From positions 1-61,545 of the IMG/VR virus record IMGVR_UViG_3300035673_000003: a stretch of DNA of 61,545 nt; one strand, written 5' to 3'. This stretch comes from a virus. Taxonomy: Duplodnaviria > Caudoviricetes. The notes under the pieces are model-generated. The model had not been told where the DNA came from. It saw nothing but the letters and a program-made list of their open reading frames with translations, and did no database searches. Both the position numbers and the translations under genes were made by a program. Each line of letters begins with the position of its first letter. Positions within the stretch are counted from its first letter, which is position 1. Shown piece after piece: positions 22,329 through 58,914 of the stretch.

Positions 22329-22399
22329 CAAATCACCCCTGCAGAACGCAAATTGGAATTCTGTCAACACAGAATTGGTCGGTTATACCATAAAAATCG

Positions 22400-27633: not shown

Positions 27634-28257
27634 ATGAGCGAGCAGGCATTTCCGCTCCGCTGGCCCGAAGGCTGGCCGCGGACGCCGTACGGCCACAAAA
27701 AATCGGGCGACGAATTCAAACGCCAGGCATCTCCCGGCAGTCTCGCGAAAGCGATGCCGTCGTTTTCCAAGTCGCGCGACCGCCTGCTGGACGAGCTCCG
27801 GCTCCTCAAGGCGTCCAGCGTCGTGATCTCGACAAACCACAAGCCGGATCGGTACGGCATCCCCGTTGAGGCCAAACGCCGCCCCGACGACGATGGCGTG
27901 GCGGTGTATTTCGTCCTCAACAAGCGGCCGATGGTTATGGCGTGCGACCGCTTCACGACGGCGGCTGCGAACATGACATCGCTTGCGCTGGCCTTCGACG
28001 CGATGCGCCAGCTCGGCCGCCACGGCGGCGGCACGATGATGAACCGCGCCTTCGACGGCTTCGTGGCGATCGCGGCGCCCGGCAAGACCTGGTGGGACGT
28101 TCTGGAATGCCGACCGGACGCCACGCGTGAGGTGATCGAGGCTCAGTATCGGCGGCTGGCGCGCGACCGGCATCCGGACAGCCAGAGCGGCTCGCACGAC
28201 GCGATGACGGCGCTCAACGAGGCGCGGGATGCTGCGATAAAGGCGAGGGCGGCATGA
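27634..28257 (+). CDS. J-domain (DnaJ-like) protein
   Basis: C-terminal WWDVLEC...IEAQYRRLARDRHPD...GSHDAM..LNEA; AAGGAG RBS. Confidence 0.9.
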   Translation: MSEQAFPLRWPEGWPRTPYGHKKSGDEFKRQASPGSLAKAMPSFSKSRDRLLDELRLLKASSVVISTNHKPDRYGIPVEAKRRPDDDGVAVYFVLNKRPMVMACDRFTTAAANMTSLALAFDAMRQLGRHGGGTMMNRAFDGFVAIAAPGKTWWDVLECRPDATREVIEAQYRRLARDRHPDSQSGSHDAMTALNEARDAAIKARAA

Positions 28258-35533: not shown

Positions 35534-36151
35534 ATGGCTGCAAAGAAAAAGCCGACACCGAAGAAAAAGACGCCAGCGCCGCCGAGGACCGAGCGGAAGA
35601 TCGAGGTCGTGCAGTGGCACGTCGATCAGCTGAAACCCTACGCGCGCAACTCTCGCACCCACAGCGCCAACCAGGTCGCCGCGCTCGCGCGCTCGATCAC
35701 GCGCTTTGGCTTCACCAACCCGATCCTCGCGGGCGACGACGGAACGATTGTCGCCGGCCACGGGCGCTTGATGGCGGCCATGTCGATCGGCATGAAAACG
35801 GTCCCGGTTATCGTCGTCTCCGATTGGACCGACGAGGAGCGCCGCGCCTACGTGATCGCGGACAACAAGATCGCGCTCGACGCGGGCTGGGACGAGGCGT
35901 TGCTCAAGCTGGAGCTGGGCGAGCTCGCGGAGGCCGGGATTGATCTGGAGCTGACCGGCTTCAAAGAGGAGGAGCTAAACAGTCTGTTCGGCGCCGTCGC
36001 CGACGACATCGACAACTCCGAAGCCGCAGCGCCGCAACTGGACGGTCTGGCCTATTCGGTGATCGTCCGCTGCGATAGTGAGGCGCATCAAGGCGAACTG
36101 CTGGAACAGTTCGAGAAGCAGGGCCTCAAGACTGAGGCGCTGATAAGCTGA
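35534..36151 (+). CDS. ParB/Srx N-terminal-domain protein (terminase-linked type, no methyltransferase domain)
   Basis: LKPYARNSRTH...SITRFGFTNPIL...IVAGHGRLMAA...AYVIADNKIALDAGWD. Confidence 0.9.
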   Translation: MAAKKKPTPKKKTPAPPRTERKIEVVQWHVDQLKPYARNSRTHSANQVAALARSITRFGFTNPILAGDDGTIVAGHGRLMAAMSIGMKTVPVIVVSDWTDEERRAYVIADNKIALDAGWDEALLKLELGELAEAGIDLELTGFKEEELNSLFGAVADDIDNSEAAAPQLDGLAYSVIVRCDSEAHQGELLEQFEKQGLKTEALIS

Positions 36152-36167: not shown

Positions 36168-37310
36168 ATGAAGGTCGATCTGAGCGTTGAAACGAAGTTG
36201 GTTCGCACGACGCGGATCAAGCAGCTGTCGAGCATGTTCGACGTGCCGGCCGCCGAGAAGCTGGCGCACCAATGGTCCGGAGAGGTTCCGATTGAGGAGC
36301 GCGACTGGAACGTGGGGCTGATCGTCGGGCCTTCGGGCGCTGGCAAATCCTCCGTCATGCGCCAGATGTTTGGCGAGCCGCCGGTGATGAAGTGGGAAGC
36401 GGCGTCGGTCTGTGACGACTTCGACAAGCGTTTCAACATTCAGGACGTGGCGGAGATTTGCTCGGCTGTCGGCTTCAACACCATTCCGTCGTGGATGAAG
36501 CCGCACGGCGTCTTGTCGACCGGGGAGAAGTTTCGCGTCGAGCTCGCGCGGCATTTGCTCGAGGGCGGCGATCCTATCGTGGTGGACGAGTTCACTTCGG
36601 TGGTCGACCGCCAGGTGGCGCACATCGGTTGCCACGCCGTGCAGAAATACGTTCGCAAGAACGCTCGGAAATTCGTCGCCGTCACGTGCCACTATGACGT
36701 GCTGGAATGGTTGCAGCCGGATTGGATTTTAGAACCGGCTACAATGTCGTTCCAATGGAGGTTACTTCAACGAAGACCCTCTATTGATGTCGAAATCGCA
36801 AGGGTCGATCACTCGGCGTGGAAACTTTTCGCTCCGTTTCACTATCTGACCGGGGAATTGCACCGCGCCGCGTCGTGTTACGTGCTTTTCGTTGGCGGCG
36901 TGCCCGCTGCCTTCCAAGGCATCCTGCACCGTCCGCACCCGACGGCGCAGAACATCAAAGCCTCGTCGCGCGGCGTCACGCTGCCCGACTATCAAGGCCT
37001 CGGTCTGATCTTCGTGATGGTTGAGACGCTCGGTGCCGCCCACAAGGCGATCGGCAACCGGTTTCGGACCTATCCGGCGCACCCCTCCCTGATCCGCTCG
37101 TTCGATCGATCGGATAAGTGGATCATGACGAAGGAGCCGGGAAAATTCTCGAACCGGTTGAGCGAAAGCTCGAACCTGGGCGGCCCGCGCCGCGCCAAGA
37201 TGGGATCTCGGCCTAACGCCGTGTTCGAGTATTGCGGCCCGGCGATGGGCGATCCGGTCACGGCGCGCGCCTTCATCGACGGCAAGTCCACGGCGTCCGT
37301 CGCCGCATAA
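36168..37310 (+). CDS. ABC-type ATPase fused to GNAT (Mom-like) acyltransferase
   Basis: GPSGAGKS, LSTGE signature, VVDEFTSVVD and VTCH; C-terminal FHYL...RGVTLPDYQGLGL acyl-CoA motif. Confidence 0.85.
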   Translation: MKVDLSVETKLVRTTRIKQLSSMFDVPAAEKLAHQWSGEVPIEERDWNVGLIVGPSGAGKSSVMRQMFGEPPVMKWEAASVCDDFDKRFNIQDVAEICSAVGFNTIPSWMKPHGVLSTGEKFRVELARHLLEGGDPIVVDEFTSVVDRQVAHIGCHAVQKYVRKNARKFVAVTCHYDVLEWLQPDWILEPATMSFQWRLLQRRPSIDVEIARVDHSAWKLFAPFHYLTGELHRAASCYVLFVGGVPAAFQGILHRPHPTAQNIKASSRGVTLPDYQGLGLIFVMVETLGAAHKAIGNRFRTYPAHPSLIRSFDRSDKWIMTKEPGKFSNRLSESSNLGGPRRAKMGSRPNAVFEYCGPAMGDPVTARAFIDGKSTASVAA

Positions 37311-37481: not shown

Positions 37482-37697
37482 ATGAGGCTCGCAACAGCGA
37501 TCAAGGCCGCGTGGGAGAAGCACGGCGAGGTCGACTTCGATCTCTATGAGGCCGAAGCGGAGCGGATGGCAGCGGAGATTGTTCGAGCAATCCCGCTGCG
37601 ATCCATTATTCGCGAATGGCTCGCCCGAAGGCTCGCCGCATCGCGTCTTAATCGGTGGTGGTTGGCGGCGACGACGTTGCCTGATCCGCTGATTTGA
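37482..37697 (+). CDS. Hypothetical protein (71 aa)
   Basis: GGAG RBS; 3' end overlaps the convergent cassette gene. Confidence 0.45.
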   Translation: MRLATAIKAAWEKHGEVDFDLYEAEAERMAAEIVRAIPLRSIIREWLARRLAASRLNRWWLAATTLPDPLI

Positions 37698-37899
37698 CTT
37701 CGTTGCAGCGCGGACAGGGTATTCCGCGCTTCGCCTCCGTCACGGTGTCAAATTGATACCAGTCGGATTGGAAGTGGCATTTCCGGCACTCGAATTGAAC
37801 GACGGGTTTATCCTCACCGGCGCCGGCATCGCAGACGTGCATCAGCTGCCCCCGCGTTTTACGCGGGGGCCTTTCGAACATTTCAGACTGTCTTGCCAT
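37648..37899 (-). CDS. Zn-ribbon protein (83 aa)
   Basis: MHVCDAG...FECRKC...CPRCN; GGAGG RBS. Confidence 0.7.
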   Translation of the reverse strand: MARQSEMFERPPRKTRGQLMHVCDAGAGEDKPVVQFECRKCHFQSDWYQFDTVTEAKRGIPCPRCNEVKSADQATSSPPTTTD

Positions 37900-38269
37900 C
37901 GCTGACGACCTCCTGCAGTCCGGTTCCTCCGGACGCGTGACGGTCGGAAGCGGCGAGCATCTGCTTCTGCAGCCGCTCCGTGGCCTCGCGGTAGACCCGC
38001 TGTCCATACTCGCTCAATGCGCCGGGGCGCACCAAGCGGGCGAGAACGGCGGTCCACTGCGCTCCGGTCAACGTGATCGGAACCTCCGCCTCTGGAAACG
38101 GTGCAGCAGGGCGATCGTGATCCTCGACGATCTCGCGGACGCGATAGATCAGCCCGTTGATTGTCTCGAAAGCGTCCTCTATTGCGTCGTCGCTAGTGTC
38201 GATGTCGTATCTCTCCATTCTCGCGATGGTGCGGAGTAGGGCGAAGGCTTTGCTCTCTGGGTCTGTCAT
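37883..38269 (-). CDS. Hypothetical protein (128 aa)
   Basis: AAAAAGGAGATCA leader. Confidence 0.75.
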   Translation of the reverse strand: MTDPESKAFALLRTIARMERYDIDTSDDAIEDAFETINGLIYRVREIVEDHDRPAAPFPEAEVPITLTGAQWTAVLARLVRPGALSEYGQRVYREATERLQKQMLAASDRHASGGTGLQEVVSDGKTV

Positions 38270-38298
38270 CGTGATCTCCTTTTTGTGTGTTTACGGTT

Positions 38299-38733
38299 TC
38301 AGTCGAAGGGCAGCGTGATCTCCTTGCCATCCGCAAGAATGACGACGCGGTAGGCTCGCTCCAGGTCGCTTGGAGCGATGAACGTTTCGAAGTCCAACAT
38401 GCCGAGCCGCTGCCGCGCGCAAAGGCGGCAGTTGCCGTCGACGATGTGGCGCTCGCCTTCGCAGTCCAGGCTCAAGACTGGCTTCGCCAGAACGTCTGGC
38501 ATCTGGCAGAAGCGGAGGACCTTCGGCCAGTCGATGTTGGCGGTGTGTGCCGCCGTCTGAGGCGGTATCACCGACATGGGGCGCCGGATCGGCGGGCCAA
38601 AAAGGCCCGCCTCCGCATCCTTCCGGATGCGCGTGATGTTCCACATGATCGCCTTGCCGGCGATGCTTGGGTCGAGGTCGTAGACTTCGTCGGTGATCGA
38701 GCATCCGATGAAGTCGATCCGCGGGTCTGTCAT
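38299..38733 (-). CDS. Stand-alone ParB/Srx-like protein (144 aa)
   Basis: KPVLSL...RHIVDGNCRLCARQRLG resembles the IVDGxHR ParB/Srx motif. Confidence 0.6.
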   Translation of the reverse strand: MTDPRIDFIGCSITDEVYDLDPSIAGKAIMWNITRIRKDAEAGLFGPPIRRPMSVIPPQTAAHTANIDWPKVLRFCQMPDVLAKPVLSLDCEGERHIVDGNCRLCARQRLGMLDFETFIAPSDLERAYRVVILADGKEITLPFD

Positions 38734-38903
38734 TGTCTGATCTCCGTTTCAAAATAGCGGCGCTCCGCTTCGTGAACCTCTAGTCCATAGCCAGCGTTCA
38801 CGTCGACTTGGCATCGCTGCCGGAATTGCTCGCGAGTGAGCTTGGGCGGCATTGCATCGAGAATGTCCAAGACATACTCCTCGTCCACGTCGTCGGTCGT
38901 CAT
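38730..38903 (-). CDS. Acidic hypothetical protein (57 aa)
   Basis: AAAGGAGATCA leader before ATG 38903. Confidence 0.7.
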   Translation of the reverse strand: MTTDDVDEEYVLDILDAMPPKLTREQFRQRCQVDVNAGYGLEVHEAERRYFETEIRQ

Positions 38904-38916
38904 GTTCTGATCTCCT

Positions 38917-39318
38917 TTAGAGGTTGAGTAATTCAAGCAACGCTTGCGGCGCTTCCTGCAGGGATTGAACGCCACGCCACGGCACGAACGGCACCGGACG
39001 CGAATTCCGCAACACGAGCGCCCAATGCCCGCGCTGATACCACTTGCTCTTGTGATCGCGGACACAGTCCACGATCTCGGTGATGCCGATGATGCCGCCC
39101 TCCGGAAGCAGGGAAGGCGGTCGAACGCCATAGTGGCGCTCGATCTCGGCGGCGGTTATGTCATCGCCGCGCTTTGACGCGTGAACGATTAACGTTCCGC
39201 GGTACTGTGTCCGCCACGTTCTGTTCTCGACGTCCTTTAGTCCGTTGACGATCAGAGACGCCCACGGTTGCTTTATGGCGAGGACTTTGGCTTTCGGCAG
39301 CATCTGGTTTCCTGTCAT
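38917..39318 (-). CDS. ASCH-domain protein
   Basis: LAIKQPWASLIVNGLKDVENRTWRTQYRGTLIVHAS...GGIIG...DC. Confidence 0.9.
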   Translation of the reverse strand: MTGNQMLPKAKVLAIKQPWASLIVNGLKDVENRTWRTQYRGTLIVHASKRGDDITAAEIERHYGVRPPSLLPEGGIIGITEIVDCVRDHKSKWYQRGHWALVLRNSRPVPFVPWRGVQSLQEAPQALLELLNL

Positions 39319-40168
39319 TGAGAAGGTCTGTTGTTGTCGCCACGCGCCGCAGGTCGTGTTCCATCTGCAGAACGTGTTTACGCACCAGCACTAACCGATC
39401 CGCCATGAGCAGAAGGCGATCAGGAGAGACGCGCTGCGCTGCGACGCATTCGCCTTCCTTAAAGCCCGACTGGATCATGTCGGCCACGAGGTTGATCTTC
39501 CTTTCCAGCCGCGAGAGCGCGGCCAGGTCCTGTTCGGACGCGCGCGGCATTTCGCCGAAGGCGTCGAGTTGGTTCTCCGCATCGCGCAAGGCGATGCAAG
39601 CGTGTTTCACCTGTTCGGACGTTGTGAATTTGCCCGCGCTTATCGCGCGGACCATTGCGATCTGCCGAGCCGGTGGAAGGTGCGCCACGCCTCCCGCCAT
39701 TGTCGACGCGAGCTGTCCCGAAGCCACGAGAGCTTGCACTTCGGGGATCAGTCTGAGCAGCAAGACGCGCTGTTGAACGAGCGCCGTGCTTTTCAGTCCT
39801 AACTCGGTGACGATGCGCTGCGCGTCAAAACCTTGATCGAGTAGGAGTTGAAAGGCGTTCGCCTCCTCGATAGGGTTCATATCCTGACGCTGCAGGTTCT
39901 CCACGATGGCGCGCAACGCCATTTCGTTCTCGTCGATCTCGACAACCTCGGCGCGGATTGTCTCCTCGCCGAGCAGCTGGTGAGCGCGGAAGCGACACTC
40001 GCCGGCTACGATCATGTAGCGGTCCGCTGCGATCCTCCGCAGTGCGATCGGTTGGATAAGCCCGCGCACCTTGATGGACGCGGCCAGCCGTTCAATGTGT
40101 TCCTGCGGGAACGCCTTGCGCGGCTGGCCGGGGTTGGCGATGATTTGTTCGAGTGGGATCATCGTCAT
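39161..40168 (-). CDS. ParB/Spo0J-family protein
   Basis: NPGQPRKAF...LAASIKVRGLIQPI...IVAGECRFRA...IVENLQRQDMNPIEEA plus HTH. Confidence 0.9.
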   Translation of the reverse strand: MTMIPLEQIIANPGQPRKAFPQEHIERLAASIKVRGLIQPIALRRIAADRYMIVAGECRFRAHQLLGEETIRAEVVEIDENEMALRAIVENLQRQDMNPIEEANAFQLLLDQGFDAQRIVTELGLKSTALVQQRVLLLRLIPEVQALVASGQLASTMAGGVAHLPPARQIAMVRAISAGKFTTSEQVKHACIALRDAENQLDAFGEMPRASEQDLAALSRLERKINLVADMIQSGFKEGECVAAQRVSPDRLLLMADRLVLVRKHVLQMEHDLRRVATTTDLLNDRKPDAAESQSPRHKATVGVSDRQRTKGRREQNVADTVPRNVNRSRVKARR

Positions 40169-40413
40169 CGCGAGAGCTTCCTTGCGAGCGCGCGCGCCAC
40201 GGCGTCCTGGCTCCACAGTCCGTATTGCCCCTTGAGGGTCGTTCCGAAGGACTGCAGCTCCTCGACGATGACCGGCGCGGCCTTGTCCGCCACGCTGCCA
40301 TAGACGCGATACACTTTGAGGAAGCGGCCTCCGGATTGAAAAACAGCGCCGGATGGGATCTCGGCGCTGCGCTCAATCATCGGCGGTGGGAAGAGGTCGA
40401 ACTGCCTATTCAC
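40165..40413 (-). CDS. Hypothetical protein (82 aa)
   Basis: GGAGG RBS; coupled to parB. Confidence 0.65.
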   Translation of the reverse strand: MNRQFDLFPPPMIERSAEIPSGAVFQSGGRFLKVYRVYGSVADKAAPVIVEELQSFGTTLKGQYGLWSQDAVARALARKLSR

Positions 40414-40666
40414 GATCCGCCTCCACTGCGACGCGAACGCCTTCCTTAATGCGCTCGCGGCACGTCGCCTTCATGCAGAATTGCTCGTAGTCGGACCAAG
40501 TCTGTTCGCTGTTTTGCGTCCCTGCTCTTGAGAGGAATGCCAACAGCGCCTCATAGAAGGCATTCTCGGCTGCAACCTGCCAAATGGAGCCTTCGTCGTC
40601 TCCGCTTTCGGTTCGTTTCGGGAACGCTTCGATTGCGAGGCGGAGAATTTCACCAAGTTCAATCAT
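40406..40666 (-). CDS. Acidic hypothetical protein (86 aa)
   Basis: GGAGG RBS; operon packing. Confidence 0.65.
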   Translation of the reverse strand: MIELGEILRLAIEAFPKRTESGDDEGSIWQVAAENAFYEALLAFLSRAGTQNSEQTWSDYEQFCMKATCRERIKEGVRVAVEADRE

Positions 40667-40817
40667 GGCGCCCTCCCTCGATCACGCGGAACGGGCCGAC
40701 GCGAGCGCCCGGCTCGGCGGCCTTCCTGATATCGGCCACAATGGCGTCCTGCTTGTCCTGCGGGATGCCCATCGCGTCCCATAGCCGACGCAAGGCTGTT
40801 TCGGGGTCGTTATTCAT
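40659..40817 (-). CDS. 52-aa hypothetical protein (not in the ORF track)
   Basis: MNNDPETALRRLWDAMGIPQDKQDAIVADIRKAAEPGARVGPFRVIEGGRHD after AAAGGAGATCA. Confidence 0.7.
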   Translation of the reverse strand: MNNDPETALRRLWDAMGIPQDKQDAIVADIRKAAEPGARVGPFRVIEGGRHD

Positions 40818-40939
40818 CTTCTGATCTCCTTTTCAGAGCCGACATTTGGTAGTAGGATCAGGCCACGTCGGCGTTTCGGCCTGATCTCCTTTTCGCTGGC
40901 GAGGGCCGCGACCTGTACCGGGTCGCGGCCCGCATCGTT

Positions 40940-42697
40940 TTAGCGCTTCGCCTTCGCGGTCTTTTTCGCAGATGCCTTTCTCGCGGGTCCATCGTATCCG
41001 GACACGCGCAGCTGCTTCGGAAGCCACTTCGTCTTTGACACGTTGCCGACTGCGAACTTCACAGCCGACGCCTTGTCCATCTTCGCGACGGTCGCAGCGT
41101 GATCGTCGCCCATCGCTTCGCGGACGGCCTCCACGATGGTGGCGCGGGATGCCGACGTGAAATAATCTTTCGCGTCGAACTTCTCGCGCAGCGCGGCGTT
41201 CAGCGCCTTGCTGTCGATCGCCTCACACAACGCCTTGAACGGCTTCTCCTCCAAAGCCGGTAGCTTGCTGTACGGCTTTGCGAGGTTGACCGACTTCGCG
41301 GCAACTTTCGCGAGCTCCTTCACCAGTTCGGCGGTCGACAGTTTGAGCGCCGCAGCGAAGGCCGTTTCGAAGGCAGTACGTCCGCGCGATCCTTCGGCGC
41401 GGACGGCGCAAGCCTGATCGCCACTGGCAAATCCGGCGAGCATCGCGGCGAGCGCGACGTTCGAGGACTTGTCGAGTGTCGCCTGGGCGGCGGCCGTCAG
41501 CTGCTCGGCCAGACGCGTCACGAGATTGCCGGGGATCGCGTCCTCGGCCGCGACCGGCTTTTTTGCCTCCTCTTTTCCGCCCGTAGCCGCTTTGGCTGCG
41601 ACTGCGGCCTTCGGCTCCGTGCGGCCGTAATCGACCGACAAGCCTTCGCGCCAAGCAACGGAGACGAAACAGCCGGCCTTGGCTTTCTGTTGCGGAGTGT
41701 AGGCGCGCAACTTGATCGCCGTCTCCAGCGCATCGTATTCAGCGCTGGCCGCCTCGTTGCCTTCGTTAGTGGTGCTCTCGTCGTCGCAGATCGCGGCCAG
41801 TTCCTTGAGCCGCTTTTTCTCCGTCGTTGTCGGTTTCGTCTCGACGTTTAGCCGTCCATACTGCCAATCGTTCGCCACGTCGGCGTCAGGCTTGGCCCAC
41901 GCCCATCCGTCCTTGACAAGCAGTTCGCATGTCGCGGCGACGAGCTCGCCCACCATCGTCTGCACGAGCGCGGGATCGCTAACGACGTGATCCTCTCCGA
42001 ATAGATCGCGGGTGATCTTTCCGCCGCGGGCTTCGTATGCCTCGGAGCCGATCACGCCGATCCATTTGCCCGCCTCGTTGTTGCCGATGCCGAGCGCCTC
42101 CCTGACGCGATAGGGATTGACAAAGCCTTCCAAGACAGTCTTGAGCGCCTTCGCCTGCAGCCTTTTGTCGGTGGACAGAGTGAACGTCTTGGCGACCTCG
42201 CCGCTGATCGTTCCATCTTCCCACGCCTTCAACACGCTTTCATCGAGCGAGCCAAGAGCGAGGCGTTGCTCGACGGCGCGGACAGGAACGCCAAAACGTT
42301 CCGCGATCTTCGCCGGATCGAGCGGCGCTTCCTTGTCGGTGTGAAGCGCAGCAAAGGCCCGATATTCGTCGACCGGGTGCATCGCAGTCCGCGCGACGTT
42401 GAGAGCGAGCGAAACCTCGCGCGCCTCCGCGTCCGTCTCGGGTCGGATGATAACAGGCACTTCGCAGTTGTCGGCAAACTCGCCGGCCTTCTGCAGAGCT
42501 TGGAGGGCGGCCAAGCGTTGTCCACCGTCGACAACGAGGTATCCCTTGCCGTTCGGTCGAACGGTCAACGGTTGCCGCAGTCCGATCGCCCTGATGGAGG
42601 CGACGAGGACGGGATCCACTCCACGGTTGGCGTGGCGAACGTTCGCCTTGTCGTCAATGCGGAGTGCCGAGAGCGGCAAAGTGGTTCGGTCAGACAT
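40940..42697 (-). CDS. Long ParB-like protein (plasmid/ICE accessory type, 585 aa)
   Basis: ANVR...LVASIRAIGLRQPLTV...VVDGGQRLAALQ...NVARTAMHPVDEYRAF...IAERFGV..RAVEQRLALG; YEARGG.ITRDLF. Confidence 0.88.
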   Translation of the reverse strand: MSDRTTLPLSALRIDDKANVRHANRGVDPVLVASIRAIGLRQPLTVRPNGKGYLVVDGGQRLAALQALQKAGEFADNCEVPVIIRPETDAEAREVSLALNVARTAMHPVDEYRAFAALHTDKEAPLDPAKIAERFGVPVRAVEQRLALGSLDESVLKAWEDGTISGEVAKTFTLSTDKRLQAKALKTVLEGFVNPYRVREALGIGNNEAGKWIGVIGSEAYEARGGKITRDLFGEDHVVSDPALVQTMVGELVAATCELLVKDGWAWAKPDADVANDWQYGRLNVETKPTTTEKKRLKELAAICDDESTTNEGNEAASAEYDALETAIKLRAYTPQQKAKAGCFVSVAWREGLSVDYGRTEPKAAVAAKAATGGKEEAKKPVAAEDAIPGNLVTRLAEQLTAAAQATLDKSSNVALAAMLAGFASGDQACAVRAEGSRGRTAFETAFAAALKLSTAELVKELAKVAAKSVNLAKPYSKLPALEEKPFKALCEAIDSKALNAALREKFDAKDYFTSASRATIVEAVREAMGDDHAATVAKMDKASAVKFAVGNVSKTKWLPKQLRVSGYDGPARKASAKKTAKAKR

Positions 42698-42878
42698 AGT
42701 GATCTCCTTTTGGAGCGTTTGAAGTCGCCGGAATTGGCGCTTCGTTCCGCGCACCACGAGAGGATGCGCGGCGGCGAAGCGTCAGGAATTGTCAACCGCT
42801 TCCTCGGCGGTTCGCGCATATTGATAGTGGTCGAACGGCCCCGCGCCCGGTGCGCTGCGGTACCAATGCGGCCCGCCT

Positions 42879-43265
42879 TCATCCCACGTCCATCCCGCAG
42901 CTATGGCGGCCTGTGACGTAGCGTCGTCGCGACGCCGGATTGCTCTCGCGGTACAGCGCGACAGCGTCCTCCGTGGACGGGATTTCGACGCAGCGGGGAT
43001 GCTGCGCATCCGTCAGCATGTAGACGAAGTGAGGAACGAATTCCCAATCGAACAAGTCGGGGCGCTCCTCCGGGGTAAGCTCGTCCCAAACGTCGCAGCA
43101 CAGCAATGACAGCGCGATTGCCGCGTGGCGCATTTCGCCGGCGCCTCTCTGTTCGAAGCAATCAACGATGGCGTCCGGCTCGGCGTCGTCACGGGTACGA
43201 CGCTCGAGCAGCGCCTCCCAAATGCAACAGGCAGCCTCGGCGTGTTCGGTGAAAAGGTTGGACAT
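42879..43265 (-). CDS. Acidic hypothetical protein (128 aa)
   Basis: AAAAAGGGAGATCA leader; FDWEFVP motif. Confidence 0.7.
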   Translation of the reverse strand: MSNLFTEHAEAACCIWEALLERRTRDDAEPDAIVDCFEQRGAGEMRHAAIALSLLCCDVWDELTPEERPDLFDWEFVPHFVYMLTDAQHPRCVEIPSTEDAVALYRESNPASRRRYVTGRHSCGMDVG

Positions 43266-43339
43266 TGTCTGATCTCCCTTTTTGAAACAGAGACGGCGCG
43301 CAATCGCGCGCCGTCTGGTGAAGCGGGTTTAGGTTTCGG

Positions 43340-43681
43340 TCAGTGGCCGTGGTGCCAGGTCTTGCCTCCGTCGTGTGAGTGGTGGCCGTGGGCTACAGCC
43401 TGACGGTTAATAGCGCGTCCGGACATTTGCTCCGCGCGCGCAATCGCAGCCTTTGCGAGTGCCGATCCGGTCGCCATGACGCGGCGATAGATGCAAGCGT
43501 CGGTGACGCCGTCGCGTTCCTCGGCGGCGATGCCGTCGAACGTGACAGCGCCTTGAGGCCCGATAACAACGCGGACCTTTCCGGACGCCAGCCCCTTATT
43601 GACGCGGTCGAGGACGGCGCGCACTTCCGTGACGCGCTCTTGGATGGTCTGTCTCTCCTTCAATCGGGTATCGCACGGCAT
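43340..43681 (-). CDS. AAA-associated small protein with His-rich tail (113 aa)
   Basis: MPCDT..., RDGVTDAC, C-terminal HGHHSHDGGKTWHHGH; 2 nt from the upstream gene. Confidence 0.75.
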   Translation of the reverse strand: MPCDTRLKERQTIQERVTEVRAVLDRVNKGLASGKVRVVIGPQGAVTFDGIAAEERDGVTDACIYRRVMATGSALAKAAIARAEQMSGRAINRQAVAHGHHSHDGGKTWHHGH

Positions 43682-43683
43682 AA

Positions 43684-44466
43684 TCAGAGCTCCACTGCGT
43701 TGGCGGTTACAGTCGGCTTGCCCACCGGGCGAAGCGGGGCGAGGTCAAGCGAACGTCCTTCGACTTGCGGCGCGGCGATCTCGCCGGCGTCGTCAAAATC
43801 GAGGAACGCCGTTCGGGCCTCCTCAATGCGTCGGATAGCTTGGCGGTCGATCTCCGCCTCGCCTTCCTCCGCTGACTTCACGATCTGGCGAGCCGCGGAG
43901 CGCGCAACGTCAATCGCGTTCCGCACTCGGGCCGCAGCGTCGCCAGTGAGCATCGCGCCAATGTTGCGAGCCCGGTTGGCCGCATCGCGGACCGTCTTGG
44001 GGTCGAGTTTCTTTAGTCCGTCCTCCATCGCTTCCATGAGCTCGCGGACTTCACTGTTGATCGCCTTGACGGCTTCCACGTCGTCGGGCGCGATGCGACC
44101 GATCATGACGTAGACAGACACGTGGGTGAGCGTGGCAGTCGCGTTGAATTCGTCCGCGAGCCTCCGCGCTTCGGCGATTGCGCTTTGCAAGCTCTCGGAC
44201 GCGATCTCCGGACAGAGCAGTCCAAAGGCCGAACGGGAGCAAACGCTGCGGACGAGCGAGAGAGCCTTCGAACGCACCTTGATTGCGTTCTCGTGCTCCT
44301 CCGGGTCGCTGATGACGCGTTCGGTGAGCCACTTCGCTTGCCGCTTGCCTTCCTCCGTGACGTGATCGGCTTCGATCTCCTCTTTGTTGTAATTCACGTT
44401 GCCGCGAACAGAGGTGTTGAGGCTGACCAAGAGGCCGGGGCGGAGCGTGTTCATTCTGATAGCCAT
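43684..44466 (-). CDS. AAA-associated protein (DUF3150-like, 260 aa)
   Basis: AAGGA RBS; RSKALSLVRSVCSRSAFGLLCPE...EARRLADEFN pattern; family call by eye. Confidence 0.6.
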   Translation of the reverse strand: MAIRMNTLRPGLLVSLNTSVRGNVNYNKEEIEADHVTEEGKRQAKWLTERVISDPEEHENAIKVRSKALSLVRSVCSRSAFGLLCPEIASESLQSAIAEARRLADEFNATATLTHVSVYVMIGRIAPDDVEAVKAINSEVRELMEAMEDGLKKLDPKTVRDAANRARNIGAMLTGDAAARVRNAIDVARSAARQIVKSAEEGEAEIDRQAIRRIEEARTAFLDFDDAGEIAAPQVEGRSLDLAPLRPVGKPTVTANAVEL

Positions 44467-44500
44467 TGTGGTGGTTCCTTTTCGAATTGAGTTTCAAAAA

Positions 44501-46072
44501 TTACGCAAGGTCGAGAACACGGTCGCCGGGCTGCGCTTTGGTTTTCGCATCCGACACACTGGCAGGACGCGCGCGCCCTTTTGCCCAATTACGCAAGCGA
44601 GTGATTTTCTCGCTGGCGGTTTTGCTGAGTGGCACAACGGTTCTGGCCGCAGCGAGAAGGTCGGCCGTGCTGAGAGCGCGGGCGTCATCTGCAAACGCGG
44701 TAAAGAGAGCGTCCGGAACGATGGCGGCGATCTCCGATCCGGTGAAGTCCTCGCACGTCGAGGCGATCCCGATCAGGTCAATGCCGTCATCTGTCCTGCC
44801 GTGCGAACGGAGCGCAGCGCGAAGAATTTCGATCCGTTCGGTGCGGGTCGGAAGATCAACCCACCAGACTTCGTCAAAGCGGCCCTTGCGGAGCAACTCG
44901 GGCGGAAGCCCTTCGACATCGTTCGCGGTCGCGATCACAAACGCCTCTCCGGAACGCTCTTGCATCCACGACAGGATGGCGCCGAGCGCATCGGATGACA
45001 CTCCGCCGTCGGCAGAGCCCGACGTGGCGCCCTGCAGAGCCTTCTCGATCTCGTCAAACCAAACGACGCAACGGCCGATGGCTTCAATGACCTTGAAGGC
45101 CTTCCGCATGTTGCTCTCGCTCTCGCCGACGAATTTGGAGCGGAGGGCTCCAAGGTCCATCCGGAGAAGCGGCACTCCCCAGGCGGTGGCGATCGCCTTC
45201 GCGGTGAGGCTCTTGCCGCAGCCGGGGAGGCCGGCGAGCATCGCTCCTTTCGGAGCGGGCAAGCCATATTCGCGCGCCTTCTGGCTGTAAGCCGAGGAGC
45301 GAGCGTTCAGCCACGCTTTCAGGTTCTCCAGTCCTCCGACGGCGTCGAGGCCGCCCGGGAGCGGGTCGAACCACTCCAAGACACGTTCGCGAGCGATCAC
45401 GCGGCGCTTCTCCTTCGCGATCACCTTCGGGTCGATGCGGCGCAGCTGGACGATGGACCGCGCGAAGCAGGACGAAGCCTCCTCGCCGGTCAGCCCGACA
45501 GCAGCGTCAATCGCGGCATCACGAGAGCCGTTCATGGCCGTGCCTTGCATGTCCTCCGGTAGCGAACGGACCGCAGCGTCGAGAATGGCGGCGATCTCCT
45601 CGCGATCCGGCATCGGCCACTCGATCACCGTGGCGTGGTTCGAAAGCTCGGGAGGAATGTCCGACGACGGCGACAGGATCACGATGGCTTGCGCCCGTTC
45701 GCGGTCGACGGCTGGAAGCGATCGAGCGAGATTGCGGAGTTGGCGCAGCGTCGTGGCTCCGGACGGTCCGGACAGCCACGCGGGAAGATCCCGCATGATG
45801 GTCAAGGTCCGTTCATTGCCGGTTTCGGCGCGAGAGCGAATGTTATTGAGCGCCTCGCCCGGGTCGTTGAGCTGATCCAGCACCTTTCCCGAAATATCGC
45901 AGATGCCTTGGCCGACGTCCCATGTCCGCATCGTGTAATTGGCGGCGGCCGCGGCTTCGATCAGGAGGCGTTCAACGCGCGCCTCTTCGCGTGTGACAAT
46001 CCAGATGAGCGGATTGCGAGCGCGCAGCAACGCGGAAACGTCGGCTGCGACTTCCTGTCCTTTGGTAGTCAT
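44501..46072 (-). CDS. Ycf46-like AAA+ ATPase (degenerate N-terminal module plus active C-terminal module)
   Basis: LLRARNPLIWIVTREEAR N-terminus; VGGLENLKAWL, GLPGCGKS, VVWFDEIEK and ATANDVEGLPPELLRKGRFDE. Confidence 0.9.
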   Translation of the reverse strand: MTTKGQEVAADVSALLRARNPLIWIVTREEARVERLLIEAAAAANYTMRTWDVGQGICDISGKVLDQLNDPGEALNNIRSRAETGNERTLTIMRDLPAWLSGPSGATTLRQLRNLARSLPAVDRERAQAIVILSPSSDIPPELSNHATVIEWPMPDREEIAAILDAAVRSLPEDMQGTAMNGSRDAAIDAAVGLTGEEASSCFARSIVQLRRIDPKVIAKEKRRVIARERVLEWFDPLPGGLDAVGGLENLKAWLNARSSAYSQKAREYGLPAPKGAMLAGLPGCGKSLTAKAIATAWGVPLLRMDLGALRSKFVGESESNMRKAFKVIEAIGRCVVWFDEIEKALQGATSGSADGGVSSDALGAILSWMQERSGEAFVIATANDVEGLPPELLRKGRFDEVWWVDLPTRTERIEILRAALRSHGRTDDGIDLIGIASTCEDFTGSEIAAIVPDALFTAFADDARALSTADLLAAARTVVPLSKTASEKITRLRNWAKGRARPASVSDAKTKAQPGDRVLDLA

Positions 46073-46145
46073 GTCTTGATCTCCTTTTGTGAAGTGCCGA
46101 CATGGCGCTTCGTGCCGCGCTCCGGTGGAGCGCGGTGTCGAAACG

Positions 46146-46283
46146 TCACTGAATGTCGGGAACGACGCCGAGGATTTGGACCCAGAGCGTAACGACGGCG
46201 ATGAAGATGCCGATGACAACGATGGCGATCGGGTCGCGAACCGGCAGCGGTCCGAGTTCGTCGCGGTGGTGATTGTCTTGCAT
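46146..46283 (-). CDS. 45-aa single-TM protein (not in the ORF track)
   Basis: MQDNHHRDELGPLPVRDPIAIVVIGIFIAVVTLWVQILGVVPDIQ after AAAAAAGGAGATCA. Confidence 0.7.
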   Translation of the reverse strand: MQDNHHRDELGPLPVRDPIAIVVIGIFIAVVTLWVQILGVVPDIQ

Positions 46284-46368
46284 TGGATTTGATCTCCTTT
46301 TTTAGAAACAAAAAAGAGACGGCGCGCGGTACCGGCGCGCGCCGTCCTTTTGATCCGGTCCGATTAGT

Positions 46369-46515
46369 TCAGCTTGATGCGCCCGTTTTCCAGCGGACCG
46401 CGCGGACAATCGACGCGTCGCTTAGGTGGATGCGTCGAGCCGAGCGGCGGGTGATTGGGTAGAACGAGGTCAGCCACGTTCCGTCGGCGAACTCGAATTG
46501 ATGATAGCGTTTCAT
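46369..46515 (-). CDS. 48-aa basic hypothetical protein, first gene of the cassette operon
   Basis: MKRYHQFEFADGTW... after AAAAGGAGATCA. Confidence 0.65.
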   Translation of the reverse strand: MKRYHQFEFADGTWLTSFYPITRRSARRIHLSDASIVRAVRWKTGASS

Positions 46516-46860
46516 CTTGATCTCCTTTTGATGCGGCATTGCATCCCGTCGCGCCGCACTGTCACTGCGGCGCGAAAGGCTGAAATCCGATCTTCCTAAT
46601 CCCATCGGTGCATCGGTGACGTGCCACTGCTCTTGCATCTGTTTGCTGCGGGAGGGCGTTGTCGGTTGCTGTGATGGCGTCGGAAAATGTTCAGCGATAA
46701 ATCAGAACGATGGATTGCAACGCGTGTTCGCTTCGGCTGACATATTCTGTGACGTGGCCCAGATGATCGGCACTGCACTCAATGCGAAGCGTATGGCGCG
46801 GCGGGCGGAATAGTCTCCGGCCCAGTTGGCGCTGGCGTTGCGGTAGGATCGTTCTAACGA

Positions 46861-46978
46861 TGTCAAACAGCGGCTGCGAAGTATGTCTCCGCGCGTTTCG
46901 TGTTCTTGACGTCCTCTGGGGCTTCACAGCCGCGCGACGTGCACTACGTAATGTAGTGGAACGCCAGATGGGTTGGAA
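46861..46978 (-). promoter_or_regulatory. Cassette-operon promoter with CI-type operator, 5' stem-loop and boxA-like element
   Basis: TTCCAA (46978-46973), 17 nt, TACATT (46955-46950); CTACGTAATGTAG (46944-46956); 12-bp stem 46933-46922/46881-46870; CGCTGTTTGACA (46872-46861). Confidence 0.65.
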
Positions 46979-47133: not shown

Positions 47134-47640
47134 GTGGCGGAGGAGAAGCTCGGCTCTGGCGAGTGCAACAGCGACACCGGCTCCAAATTGCTCATGTGCA
47201 CGCCGCAGTGGTTCAATCAGCTGGTGCGCGACGGCTGGATTAAAAAGCTCGGCAAGAACCGCTACCGCGTCGTCGACGTGGTGCAGGGCTATATCAAACA
47301 CCTGCAGGACGAAAACCGCCGCGCTCAGAAAAGCGCCGCTGCATCGCGCGTCCAAGACGCGCGGGCCGCCCAGATCGAAATGCTGACCGCGCGTGATATG
47401 GGCAAGCTGGTCGATGTGGATGACGTGCTGACGTGGCAGAGCGAGATACTCGGCGCGCTGCGCTCCGAGTTGACCGGCGTTCCCGCCGCGACGACGCGCG
47501 ACCTCGCCGTCCGCGCGGAGATAGAAAAGCAAATCAATGCCGCCGTTGACCGATCCCGCACAGCGTTTGAGGAAGCGTGGTCGCTTCTACAGAGCGGCAA
47601 GCCAGTCGCTGTGGACGCCGAAGAAGCAGACGCCGGATGA
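47134..47640 (+). CDS. terS: Terminase small subunit (Nu1-like)
   Basis: wHTH-like NQLVRDGWI...YRVVDVVQGYIKHL followed by a coiled coil; precedes and overlaps terL. Confidence 0.8.
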   Translation: MAEEKLGSGECNSDTGSKLLMCTPQWFNQLVRDGWIKKLGKNRYRVVDVVQGYIKHLQDENRRAQKSAAASRVQDARAAQIEMLTARDMGKLVDVDDVLTWQSEILGALRSELTGVPAATTRDLAVRAEIEKQINAAVDRSRTAFEEAWSLLQSGKPVAVDAEEADAG

Positions 47641-49606
47641 GTGGGGTGCCGAGAACCGGGTCTATGGTCCTGGCACCGGCTGGCCGGGGCAGCGCAATCC
47701 GAACCTGACGCCATACGCCACGCCGTTCGCCCGCGCCTTCACCGATCCGAAGTATCGCCGCGTCGTTCTGGTCACGGCGGCACAGAGCGCCAAGACGGAG
47801 ACGCTGCTCGACGTGATCGGCGAGCGCCTCGACAACCGGCCGGCGCCGATCCTCTACGTCGGACCCAACAAGCAATTCATCACCGATCAGTTCGAGCCGC
47901 GGGTTCGGGAATTATTCGTTCAGGCGAAGTCGCTCGCGTCCAAGATGATCGGCGGCATTGACGGCAAGCAACAGAAGCAGGCGCTCAAGCGGGTGAACGG
48001 CACTCGCCTCCGCCTCGCGCACGCCGGATCGTCCACCGCCTTGAAGTCGGATCCCGCGTCTATGGCGCTGGTCGACGAATACGACGAGATGCTGGCGAAC
48101 GTGAAAGGGCAGGGCGATCCTCTCGGCCTGGTCGAAGCTCGCGGCGATACCTATGCGGACTTCGTGGTCGGCGTCGTTTCAACCCCTTCGGTCGGCATGA
48201 TTGAGATCGAGCGCGACGAGGACGCAAACCTCGAATTCTGGAAGGCGGTCGATCCGGACGCCATCGAGGACGTGAAGTCGCCAATCTGGCGGCTGTGGCA
48301 GGAAGGCACACGGCATCACTGGTGCTGGCCGTGCGTCCACTGCGGCGACTACTTCGTGCCGCGCTTCGCGCAGCTCGAATGGCCGAAGGATGCCTCGCCG
48401 CTGCAGGCTCGGCGCAACGCCTTCGTCCGCTGTCCGCATTGCGGCGGCGTGCTGGAGGACCGCCACAAATCCGAGATGAACGCGCGCGGCCGTCACGTTG
48501 CGCCCGGGCAGAAGGTCGATCGGGAAGGCGTCGTGGTTGGCGATCCGCCCGACACCTCGACGCTGTCGTTCTGGGTTTCCGGCCTTGCGTCGCCGTTCGT
48601 GACCTTCGGCCAGCGCGCGGAGACGTTCTTGACCGCGTTGCTCTCCCGCGAGAGCGGCAAAATCCAGACGGCTACCAACTCGCAGTTTGGCGAGCTTTAC
48701 ATCGACGGCGGCGGCGAAGTCCCCGCCTGGGAGGCGATCTTCGCGGCGCGGCTCGGCTACAAGCCGGGCACCGTTCCGGAAGGCGTCCGCTACATCACGG
48801 CGGGGATCGACGTTCAAAAGGACCGGCTGATCTACGTGGTGCGCGGCTGGGGGCATCGCGCAACGTCGTGGCTCCTCAAACACGGCGAGCTGCTCGGCAA
48901 CACCGGCGAGCCGGAGGTCTGGAGCGACCTTGACGAATTCCTGGCGGCGTCGATGGACGGCCACACCATCAAGCTCGTCTTTCTGGACAGCGGCTTTCGC
49001 CCCGGCAAAAAGGAAGGCGTTCCTGTCAATCGCATCTATGAATTCTGCCGACGCCACCGGCGCTTCGTGTTCCCCACCAAGGGATCCTCGCACTCGATGC
49101 TGCGCCCGCTGGTCAAGTCGCAGATCGAAGTGACGCAGCAGGGCAAGGTTTCGAAATACGGCCTCGAGCTCGTGCGCCTCGACACCGACCACTGGAAGTC
49201 CTTCGTCCACGAGAAGCTGGTCTGGCCGGCCGATCAGCCAGGCGCGTGGTTCCTCCACAACGATGTCAACGAGAGCTACTGCCGCCAGCTCGTCTCCGAA
49301 GTCCGCGTCACCACCGAGAACAACAAGCACCAATGGATAGTGCGTTCTCGCGAAAACCATTTTCTCGACGCGGAGGCTCTCGCGGCCGCCGCGGGCTACA
49401 TGCTCAACGTTCAGCATTTGCGCGGCGGGGGCGGGCGGTCCCCTCCTCGCGTCACTGCCGCGCAAACAGTGGAGCCGGAGGCGATCCAGACGCCTTCGGC
49501 TCCACGCCCAATTCCGCAACAGCCCCCGCAGCCCGCGCCGATCGCGGCGGCGACAGCGGCCAAGAAAAACCGCTTCGCCAGCCTCGCGGCGCGGCTCAAC
49601 AGGTAG
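47537..49606 (+). CDS. terL: Terminase large subunit (lambda GpA family)
   Basis: AAQSAKTE, LVDEYDE, VSTP, CVHCG/CPHCG, ITAGIDVQKD, FLDSG and NHFLDAE; exact start uncertain. Confidence 0.95.
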   Translation: MPPLTDPAQRLRKRGRFYRAASQSLWTPKKQTPDEWGAENRVYGPGTGWPGQRNPNLTPYATPFARAFTDPKYRRVVLVTAAQSAKTETLLDVIGERLDNRPAPILYVGPNKQFITDQFEPRVRELFVQAKSLASKMIGGIDGKQQKQALKRVNGTRLRLAHAGSSTALKSDPASMALVDEYDEMLANVKGQGDPLGLVEARGDTYADFVVGVVSTPSVGMIEIERDEDANLEFWKAVDPDAIEDVKSPIWRLWQEGTRHHWCWPCVHCGDYFVPRFAQLEWPKDASPLQARRNAFVRCPHCGGVLEDRHKSEMNARGRHVAPGQKVDREGVVVGDPPDTSTLSFWVSGLASPFVTFGQRAETFLTALLSRESGKIQTATNSQFGELYIDGGGEVPAWEAIFAARLGYKPGTVPEGVRYITAGIDVQKDRLIYVVRGWGHRATSWLLKHGELLGNTGEPEVWSDLDEFLAASMDGHTIKLVFLDSGFRPGKKEGVPVNRIYEFCRRHRRFVFPTKGSSHSMLRPLVKSQIEVTQQGKVSKYGLELVRLDTDHWKSFVHEKLVWPADQPGAWFLHNDVNESYCRQLVSEVRVTTENNKHQWIVRSRENHFLDAEALAAAAGYMLNVQHLRGGGGRSPPRVTAAQTVEPEAIQTPSAPRPIPQQPPQPAPIAAATAAKKNRFASLAARLNR

Positions 49607-58544: not shown

Positions 58545-58610
58545 CCCCGGACAATTCGTCGACATCAACTTGTTCCGCAGCTAAGCCGCCTTACACAAGG
58601 AAACCCCAGA

Positions 58611-58874
58611 ATGTCTGTGATTTACGTCAAGCCGTCCCCGGGCGGCCGCGTCCGTATGCCTGATCGCGACTTCCGGCCGATGCCGGAGGAGGGTGCTTAC
58701 GTTCCGCGCAACGACTACTACGAGCGCCTCATCATCGGCGGCGATCTAGTCATCACCGATCCGCCCGCCATTGAAGCGGCCGTGCCGTCCTCGATGCCGG
58801 CGAACTACACCGCCGCCGATCATCCCGTGGGCGACTACACGTCCGCGACACTCCCGCCCGTCAACAAAATCTAA
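58611..58874 (+). CDS. Mu gp38/DUF2635-like protein
   Basis: IYVKPSPGGRVRMPD...MPEEGAYVPRNDYYERLI..GD. Confidence 0.85.
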   Translation: MSVIYVKPSPGGRVRMPDRDFRPMPEEGAYVPRNDYYERLIIGGDLVITDPPAIEAAVPSSMPANYTAADHPVGDYTSATLPPVNKI

Positions 58875-58914
58875 CGCAACGCCCGCTTCGGCGGCCTCAC
58901 AGGAGAACTAAGCG

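Follow-up and report, generated by a model that had tools for sequence, protein, structure and literature searches.

A recurrent start-associated leader in a putative accessory operon of an uncultured phage

What is the use of one short sequence that stands ahead of gene after gene in a single phage operon, uniform within the genome and different between phage lineages? This question is raised by a virus record of the Caudoviricetes (IMG/VR IMGVR_UViG_3300035673_000003), the whole of which (61,545 bp, rated 99% complete) was analyzed and is called the window below. Sixteen co-directional open reading frames (ORFs), g1 to g16, lie on its minus strand from 46515 to 37648, flanked by an ABC_tran/GNAT-like gene and by terS, both on the plus strand; the initial annotation of this DNA had counted about 16 genes there, a figure borne out by our map. 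The reading that we favor, with some reserve, is that the block forms a separate accessory operon of translation units, each headed by one lineage-specific start-associated leader, and that these units are seams of gene exchange.

The leader repeat and the units that it heads

The leader is the 11-base sequence AAAGGAGATCA. Nine exact copies were found in the record, all on the minus strand and eight of them in the operon block. When up to one mismatch was allowed, 15 matches were obtained as compared with 0.58 expected from shuffled sequences, none of 100 shuffles reaching 15, and 11 of the 15 fell into the block. Nine of these 11 copies precede an ORF-opening ATG by 2-7 nt (g1, g2, g3, g6, g7, g8, g13, g14 and g15). 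The remaining two are an ORF-less copy at 40882-40892, behind which no credible tiny ORF was found, and a copy within the 3′ end of g14 at 38316-38326. The ten recurrences given in the initial annotation are thus about right. Genes were called by our own procedure based on GC content at third codon positions (GC3) and not by a gene finder, and the layout was also taken from family scans. By these crude calls, the leader is carried by 9 of the 16 block genes and by 2 of 64 other genes (Fisher p = 2.3e-6), which makes it operon-specific and excludes that it is equally frequent before other genes of the phage. In both leader-bearing genes outside the block the motif likewise precedes an ATG by 2-7 nt; neither is a virion gene, and the motif is thus confined to non-structural genes. 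The other phage genes, capsid included, mostly show Shine-Dalgarno (SD) matches of 4-5 nt or no match. The features of the operon, followed by the two leader-bearing genes outside it, are:

46942-46958, no strand assigned: candidate repressor operator, 17-bp palindrome CACTACATTACGTAGTG (CTAC-N5-GTAG at 46944-46956)
46529-46941, minus: operon 5′ leader, apparently non-coding, with boxA-like CGCTGTTTGACA at 46872-46861 and a covarying hairpin at 46586-46538
46518-46528, minus: leader AAAGGAGATCA of g1
46369-46515, minus: g1, 48 aa, basic, no family
46317-46347, minus: intrinsic-terminator-like hairpin, 12 pairs and a T-run, directly ahead of the g2 leader
46290-46300, minus: leader AAAGGAGATCA of g2
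46146-46283, minus: g2, 45 aa, hydrophobic
46077-46148, minus: junction element before g3, bipartite stem-loop and CACGAAGCGCCATGTCGGCACTTCAC, then leader
44501-46072, minus: g3, AAA+ ATPase, 523 aa, phrog_8638, Pfam AAA at 1.4e-28
43684-44466, minus: g4, 260-aa partner, phrog_11021, homologue of Corndog gp95
43340-43681, minus: g5, 113-aa His-tailed partner, phrog_11784, homologue of Corndog gp93
43270-43315, minus: GC hairpin and leader AAGGGAGATCA before g6
42879-43265, minus: g6, 128 aa, orphan
42700-42784, minus: second junction element with leader, before g7
40940-42697, minus: g7, 585-aa ParB_N and helix-turn-helix (HTH) protein with a long C-terminal part, phrog_7783
40855-40931, no strand assigned: two hairpins with the ORF-less leader copy (40882-40892), tandem terminators when read on the plus strand
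40822-40832, minus: leader AAAGGAGATCA of g8
38917-40817, minus: coupled unit g8-g12, leader only at g8
within 38917-40817, minus: g8, g9 and g10, 52, 86 and 82 aa, orphans
40168-39161, minus: g11, ParB_N and HTH protein, 335 aa, 1.3e-24
39318-38917, minus: g12, ASCH protein, 133 aa
38908-38918, minus: leader of g13, within the last g12 codons; the homology block shared with relative L088 ends here
38730-38903, minus: g13, 57 aa, acidic, orphan
38738-38748, minus: leader AACGGAGATCA of g14, within the g13 end
38299-38733, minus: g14, 144 aa, candidate ParB/Srx-fold protein
38272-38282, minus: leader of g15
37883-38269, minus: g15, 128 aa, orphan
37648-37902, minus: g16, putative Zn ribbon, 84 aa counted from MARQ (38007 is the start of the longest ORF)
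18754-19536, minus: leader-bearing 260-aa ORF between the YqaJ-like exonuclease and RecT genes
27634-28257, plus: leader-bearing J-domain protein gene

Genes without a leader (g4, g5, g9-g12 and g16) overlap or closely trail the preceding gene, and the leader therefore marks translation units and not every gene. The units are g1, g2, g3-5, g6, g7, g8-12, g13, g14 and g15-16. The sequence context is A-rich and G-poor, and the start codon is always ATG. Seven nucleotides of the leader are complementary to the usual anti-SD sequence, and strong translation from it appears plausible. The four bases ATCA behind GGAG are constant in 30 of 34 collected sites and are retained in relatives, in agreement with the earlier remark that conservation reaches beyond the SD sequence. 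Longer identities at some junctions were confirmed as well: CATTGTCTGATCTCC is common to the junctions at 38731 and 43263, and g14 and g15 share the opening ATGACAGACCC.

Two candidate explanations of the conserved bases were discarded. Pairing of ATCA with the 16S tail, examined by hand with the usual 16S 3′ end, was not convincing as the main explanation, and the words of other lineages differ. GATC as a Dam or restriction signal is not indicated by its genome count, which is unremarkable (553 observed, 499 expected).

Relatives, exchanged cargo and lineage-specific words

Relatives were fetched by terL and AAA-protein scans, which yielded 20, 57 and 80 loci (numbered with L). The same layout, consisting of terL/terS, an antisense operon and ABC-GNAT and/or ParB-N genes, was found in L088, in L059 (the same as L012) and in L050/L051, whose AAA proteins are 80%, 70% and 71% identical to that of the window; L017 is a short fragment of a fourth relative. 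All relatives carry GGAGATCA leaders on the operon strand and few or none on the other strand. There are six leader-led ORFs and one ORF-less copy in L088, seven leader-led ORFs with tCAAAGGAGATCA plus other copies in L050, and four leader-led ORFs and one ORF-less copy, all AACGGAGATCA, in L059.

The cargo behind these leaders differs. Among the window, L088, L059 and L050, AAA-g4-g5 is the only constant part. In L088, g11, g12, g14 and g16 are retained, while g6, g7, g8-g10, g13 and g15 are missing and different small genes are present; L059 retains g14 and g16 in changed order, and L050 only g12. Gene content is thus not fixed across relatives. Of 11 blastn blocks shared by the window and L088, four have an end no more than 1 nt away from the last base of a leader (46518, 46076, 42700 and 38908). 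With 92% identity over 77 nt, the g2-g3 spacer (73 nt) matches L088 9658-9734, a sequence that stands ahead of a different 60-aa gene, while the neighboring coding DNA is about 71% identical. Of 20 internal block ends in the pair L072/L074 (93% identity), seven are no more than 35 nt away from a leader, compared with 7.8% of random points (p = 5e-4), and in L089/L090 this holds for one of four. Leader and hairpin units thus coincide with seams of gene exchange. The initial annotation had proposed the repeats as recombination joints and asked for gene swaps with breakpoints at the motif. The coincidence of leader/hairpin junctions with differences between relatives agrees with this idea; a causal role does not follow, as three of five close pairs have no breakpoint nearby.

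Outside the closest relatives, the core GGAG is followed by other bases. The word of each source was defined as its commonest GGAG-led 8-mer, strand-specific, with at least five copies of which at least 60% were followed by a start codon. Of the 88 sources with a length of 8 kb or more, some contigs being represented twice, 29 had such a word. De-duplication by AAA sequence left 51 rows, 27 with a word of at least four start-linked copies and 24 without a word. The extensions of GGAG were ATCA, CAAC, ACCA, ACAA, AGAG, TCCA and ACGC, and copy numbers were high: 15 for CAAC in L053, 14-20 for ACCA in L072, L074 and L082 and 7 in L089, and 15 for TCCA in the 9-kb locus L096. None of four long loci fetched by terL only had a word, which is too few to claim a link.

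The words cluster on a tree of the AAA proteins, requiring 13 changes compared with 25.4 when labels were shuffled. This is a quick tree, midpoint-rooted for drawing only; loci below 8 kb had been dropped beforehand, as had partial AAA matches and duplicates of an AAA sequence. The well-supported clade of the window mixes ATCA (window, L088 and L061) with ACCA (L089/L090), and L051, an ATCA locus, adjoins the CAAC clade. We regard the genome-wide uniformity of the four bases after GGAG, together with their change between lineages, as the most interesting point of the locus.

Structured junctions, the control region and rival explanations

Similarity between leader regions mostly extends over 22-33 nt and is longer at two junctions. 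One element of 70-85 nt, composed of a bipartite stem-loop, CACGAAGCGCCA..GGCACTTCA and the leader, is present as the spacer of both g3 and g7. The stems comprise 7 + 9 pairs with an internal loop, lie 25-30 nt upstream of the SD sequence and have fold z scores of -4.9 (before g3) and -3.4. A consensus fold of six copies from the window, L088, L052 and L053 contains 18 pairs, three of which show a compensatory change in one sequence each. Altogether hairpins occupy six junctions, namely the element before g3 and g7 and others before g1, g2, g6 and g8, and those after g1 and after g5 have T-rich, terminator-like tails. A simple consensus scan for sigma-70 promoters at the junctions of the window and L088 found none, and neither sigma-54 nor sigma-70 promoters were seen within the junction element by eye or scan.

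The hairpin with the ORF-less leader recurs in the window, L088, L059 and L050, behind different genes, and the second hairpin near 40855-40931 shows a compensatory change in L088. Read in the other direction, the hairpin after g7 and the orphan-leader hairpin score as plus-strand intrinsic terminators, and both, located at 40855-40941 in the window, are kept in L088 (13010-13084). Such plus-strand terminators could stop antisense transcripts from the convergent rightward operon, and the leader copy at 40882-40892 may be the T-run of one of them.

Upstream of the operon lies one of five copies of a CTAC-N5-GTAG palindrome, for which 0.07 copies were expected in the window. A -10-like TACATT is located inside it (46955-46950, minus strand). 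Further copies were found at 22400, in the gap between the HTH gene and a divergent gene and abutting TTGACT, at 21430 and 21403, abutting or following TTGACA on the minus strand, and at 15932. L088 (CACTACAATACGTAGTG) and L017 (CGCTACATTTCGTAGTG) have the operon palindrome at the corresponding position; the -10-like TACATT/TACAAT lies in the left half, and L017 has TTGGCA-17-TACATT. Repressor control of the operon is plausible because the palindrome is common to the immunity region, is kept in L088 and L017 and holds a -10-like hexamer.

Between palindrome and g1 lie approximately 430 nt, for which blastn gave 72-73% identity to L088 and L050; the indel lengths are not multiples of three. The boxA-like CGCTGTTTGACA and a hairpin with altered but complementary stems (fold z = -3.0) were present in all four sequences, the window, L088, L050 and L017. 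No Rfam family was matched in the window. The conserved boxA-like 5′ leader followed by a canonical terminator right after g1 suggests antitermination.

Taken together, the favored reading would work as follows. The promoter would have its -10 inside the palindrome, copies of which also lie beside the repressor gene, so that the lysogen would not express the operon and expression would set in early after induction. The conserved 430-nt leader with its boxA-like word would allow RNA polymerase to read through the internal terminator-like hairpins. Each unit would be translated from its own strong site, given the 7-nt SD match, the A-rich and G-poor context and the ATG. As the bases after GGAG are kept within a genome and differ between lineages, they may be read by a phage or host factor or be homogenized by recombination between leaders, and the repeated leader and hairpin units would act as seams for gain, loss and re-ordering of genes.

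Several observations weigh against this picture. Seven of the 16 block genes have no leader. The rarity of the 11-mer, which favors the reading, is that in a class-level sample and not in the host: 300 of 301 alphaproteobacterial genomes have 0-9 copies each. All loci were fetched via the AAA gene, and the link between word and phage group is therefore subject to ascertainment bias. In the CAAC-type pairs L127/L129, L070/L127 and L070/L129, 0 of 9, 0 of 9 and 0 of 5 block ends lie near a leader, most ends falling in the leader-free part of these loci. Moreover, breakpoints at gene starts, where the leaders lie, are expected whatever their cause. In the control region, the operator-embedded -10 has a weak -35 partner in the window (TTCCAA) and in L088. 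The sole minus-strand promoter from a consensus scan (47013-46984) lies upstream of the palindrome without overlap, and the immunity-region palindromes abut -35 boxes and do not cover a -10, a different geometry. An overlap of a CI-type operator with a promoter, as proposed initially, is thus absent for the scanned promoter and present for the TACATT hexamer inside the palindrome. The word CGCTGTTTGACA is called boxA-like for its resemblance to the E. coli rrn boxA. Finally, no RNA sequencing run containing the sequence is listed, as opposed to three soil DNA runs, of which one is probably the source. The genome standing apart from the other 300 (G276, loci L176-L187) contains 86 copies of the 11-mer inside a longer dispersed repeat unrelated to gene starts. 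That repeat contains AAAGGAGATCAAGCC, the 15-mer of the ORF-less leader copies in L088 and L050.

How much of this is needed to explain the leader? It might be a plain strong ribosome-binding site, an optimal SD sequence with a G-free spacer, whose copies are alike through capture copying and gene conversion and which has no reader. An invariant GGAG core with G-free extensions in every lineage (ATCA, ACCA, CAAC, ACAA and TCCA), the A-rich, G-poor context with ATG start, the variable distance of 2-8 nt to the start codon and the failure of Pfam to find an RNA-binding candidate among the other genes of the phage all fit this simpler account, which we consider possible, if rather unlikely. Drift under a constraint on composition alone should yield mixed spacers in each genome, and GGAGATCA instead recurs unchanged at numerous independent sites, even between lineages with protein identities of only 50-80%. 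In every L059 copy, ATCA is unaltered while the SD sequence has a weakened 5′ part, AAC, and within one AAA clade the leaders of a genome are all ATCA or all ACCA. The opposite extreme, somewhat more doubtful still, would make GGAG and its four bases a private translational address. Each phage lineage would encode or recruit a reader of its own word, which would switch the accessory regulon on or off at the ribosome without regard to host messages, word and reader co-evolving, all leaders of a genome changing jointly, as between the ATCA and ACCA phages of one AAA clade, and the stem-loop-leader units acting as portable gene sockets. That the repeats act as DNA, as stoperator-like repressor sites or ParB-type loading sites, is highly improbable. 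Three proteins assigned to the ParB/Srx fold are encoded in the operon and a fourth just outside, and stoperators of Cluster A mycobacteriophages are likewise short, asymmetric and in one orientation (PMC3203893). Yet all functional-looking leader copies contain GGAG and are separated from an ATG by 2-7 nt, variation among the words of other lineages is restricted to the bases behind GGAG, and the repeat is unlike the CTAC-N5-GTAG palindrome. Nor is it palindromic, unlike parS sites.

The two other alternatives concern the junctions and the cargo. Between early genes of phage T7 lie RNase III sites, and the stem-loop and leader junctions could similarly be RNA processing or stabilizing sites at which the polycistronic RNA is cut into hairpin-ended units with a free ribosome site. 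This improbable reading is compatible with the one that we favor. Hairpins at six junctions and long bipartite stems (z = -4.9), conserved with compensatory changes 25-30 nt ahead of the SD sequence, would suit it; two of the hairpins have T-runs and resemble ordinary terminators, and the pair at 40855-40931 reads better as terminators of the opposite strand. The block was initially taken for an immediate-early host-takeover or anti-defence array. Variable, orphan-rich cargo behind a shared strong leader and a probably repressor-gated promoter would be in keeping with such an array, as would a weak Lar-like match of g16 (E 0.0025), the ParB-N and ASCH genes, which the initial annotation likened to plasmid leading-region cargo, and the Aca-type regulators reported to bind RNA motifs in 5′ untranslated regions (UTRs) of anti-defence operons (PMC13551039). 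In contrast, searches with Pfam, PHROGs, NCBIfam and PADLOC, none of them a dedicated anti-defence library, gave no defence or anti-defence family in the cargo beyond that Lar-like match and generic AAA similarity (IetA and TRIP13 in PADLOC). Furthermore, g6 and g15 had no usable match in the ESM Atlas, and the sole widely conserved part of the block is the AAA+ trio common to Corndog-type mycobacteriophages. The proposal is so far unsupported, and we think it unlikely that the block mainly serves this purpose.

Known systems, cargo and phage context

The leader is best filed as a further start-associated sequence (SAS) of the SAS/ESAS kind. In Cluster K mycobacteriophages, SAS elements have an SD core, stand 3-7 nt before starts with a bias for ATG, occur in one orientation and precede non-structural genes only; their flanks cannot pair with 16S rRNA, and about half have upstream inverted repeats (PMC3203893). 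Their role has been called unknown since 2011 and still in 2024 and 2025 (PMC3203893, PMC11373665 and PMC12699233). A SAS-like 26-bp repeat is reported from Citrobacter phage Mordin (PMC4611695). Like SAS, the leader is a short asymmetric repeat with an SD core, a few nucleotides before mostly ATG starts of non-structural genes and in one orientation. It precedes unrelated genes, is kept across related phages (window, L088, L050, L059 and L017) and appears to be rare in cellular genomes, judged here from the class-level alphaproteobacterial sample. If the host has the usual 16S 3′ end, conservation would also extend to positions beyond 16S pairing. As in SAS/ESAS, a subset has an upstream inverted repeat and part of the element varies between sub-lineages. 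Unlike SAS, the word is AAAGGAGATCA instead of GGGATAGGAGCCC, phage lineage and host phylum differ, and the word precedes the leading gene of each coupled unit inside a single operon. The inverted repeats described here show compensatory changes, whereas Pope et al. report little support for RNA pairing in ESAS. Later work places promoters in ESAS; the junctions described here contained no sigma-70-like promoter.

Also among the closest known systems are the promoter-early stem-loop (PeSL) cassettes of T4-type phages, units of stem-loop, promoter and SD sequence before ORFans for which shuffling was shown (Arbiol et al. 2010, PMC2839356). Both systems have repeated intergenic units of stem-loop and SD sequence that end at the start codon ahead of variable-region ORFans, and insertions, deletions and replacements in relatives can fall at the units. 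Each PeSL unit has a strong sigma-70 promoter, while none was found in the units described here, where the conserved part is the ribosome site and not the promoter. Recombination and mini-circles of PeSL are experimental, as opposed to the breakpoint coincidence reported here.

The operon also resembles lambda-type early operons in that the same palindrome lies beside the HTH repressor gene, at the leftward promoter and upstream of the operon, and in its boxA-like word and internal terminators. In contrast to them, it would be the third operon with an operator, at a distance of 24 kb from the immunity region and in antisense orientation to the genes on either side; the operator encloses the -10 here and adjoins the -35 in the immunity region, and neither an N-like nor a Q-like gene was identified. 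With the Aca-bound RNA motifs in 5′ UTRs of anti-CRISPR and anti-defence operons (PMC13551039) the locus shares structured RNA beside ribosome sites of phage accessory operons, for which joint translational control has been proposed. Unlike the Aca case, no Aca-like HTH gene and no anti-defence gene was identified in the operon, and the motif is repeated inside the operon and not restricted to the 5′ UTR.

The locus adds a Gram-negative, probably rhizobial, phage group to the cases of start-associated sequences. At least six four-base extensions, distributed over dozens of related contigs and in some cases distinguishing close relatives, constitute a natural mutational series in which a reader protein or RNA that co-varies with the word can be sought by comparison. 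Without such a reader, the leader would be a strong ribosome site of the ordinary type that recombination has spread. As exchange seams, leader and hairpin units are an aid in annotating accessory cassettes of uncultured phages and in finding their limits.

Of the cargo proteins, g3 belongs to the classical AAA+ ATPases and has a long N-terminal portion. Together with g4 and g5 it forms a core common to Corndog-type mycobacteriophages (Corndogvirus) and more than 100 metagenomic contigs. The three are 49%, 43% and 56% identical to Corndog gp96, gp95 and gp93, and the arrangement is syntenic (window 43340-46072; L030, which is Corndog, 56866-60055). A long ParB-like gene often lies a few genes past the trio (g7 in the window, L089, L141, L071 and Corndog gp90). 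The ParB_N domain of g7 is clear by PHROG and weak by Pfam (25.3 bits for a cut-off of 26.3); membership in the NCBIfam family PRTRC-ParB was not adopted (56 bits for a cut-off of 279).

No family was matched by g14, for which an exhaustive search gave 85 relatives with a consensus motif DGNHR, replaced by DGNCR in this phage. The His is kept in at least 90% of 50 aligned relatives, and this phage has Cys. A structure model of g14 (pLDDT 95) matched only ParB/Srx-fold chains in Foldseek, with weak E values of 0.004-0.2. The top rows were sulfiredoxin, Noc, ParB, a serine kinase and SbnI, and profile matches to the same proteins had E values of 0.01-0.8. For g6 and g15, the ESM Atlas gave no usable feature match, and the models were of low confidence. 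The structure searches of small ORFs proposed at the outset therefore point to a ParB/Srx fold for g14 and yielded nothing for the other two. The Zn ribbon of g16 was read from CxxC pairs, and its shorter start is favored by the L059 homologue. Of the cargo listed in the initial annotation, AAA and ASCH and the ParB assignments of g7 and g11 thus stand, the third ParB/Srx protein depends on the Foldseek matches and the Zn ribbon on the CxxC pairs. The operon orphans are g1, g2, g6, g8-g10, g13 and g15.

The ASCH gene (38917-39318) and the ABC-ATPase/GNAT gene (36168-37310) co-occur in the window, L088 and L050, and both are undetected in L059. A general link between ASCH and the leader was rejected, since of the loci fetched only L050/L051 and L088 were found to have ASCH. 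Speculatively, judged by known ASCH and GNAT biochemistry, ASCH and ABC-GNAT might be a writer/eraser pair for acetyl-type nucleic-acid modification.

Outside the operon, the window is organized as follows:

from 47134, plus: packaging and virion genes, with terS from 47134 and terL (lambda-GpA-type) at 47537-49606, continuing across the record ends to about 13.7 kb
leftward block: YqaJ-like exonuclease, RecT and SSB genes
21699-22370, minus: HTH repressor-like gene
rightward early block: DnaB-like helicase, J-domain protein, ParA-like ATPase, ParB-N protein (35534-36151) and ABC-ATPase/GNAT-like protein (36168-37310, plus)

The phage is probably temperate and from Bradyrhizobium-like soil bacteria. 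Named homologues of g7, at 47-49% identity, are from Bradyrhizobium. An ORF of 408 aa at 14754-15980 adjoins the reported attP and is presumably the integrase; it had no Pfam family at E <= 0.001. No near-identical phage record was found for the 9.3-kb block. A terL scan of the genome collection gave a single match, a distant metagenome-assembled genome, and the AAA protein had six distant matches (36-40% identity) and no close prophage in 401 sampled alphaproteobacterial genomes.

The sequence GANTC is nearly missing from the window, with one site (31516) compared with 266 expected under a second-order model. Observed and expected numbers were 1 and 102 in L088, 1 and 72 in L059, 4 and 92 in L026, and 8 and 92 in L028; depletion is much weaker or absent in L096, L050, L072 and L089. 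The loss of GANTC suggests strong selection against a host GANTC-specific restriction or methylation system. The 9-kb locus L096 has 15 leaders CAGGAGTCCA, each with one GANTC site (GAGTC), and the GANTC-free lineages have leaders GGAGATCA or GGAGACCA in place of CAGGAGTCCA.

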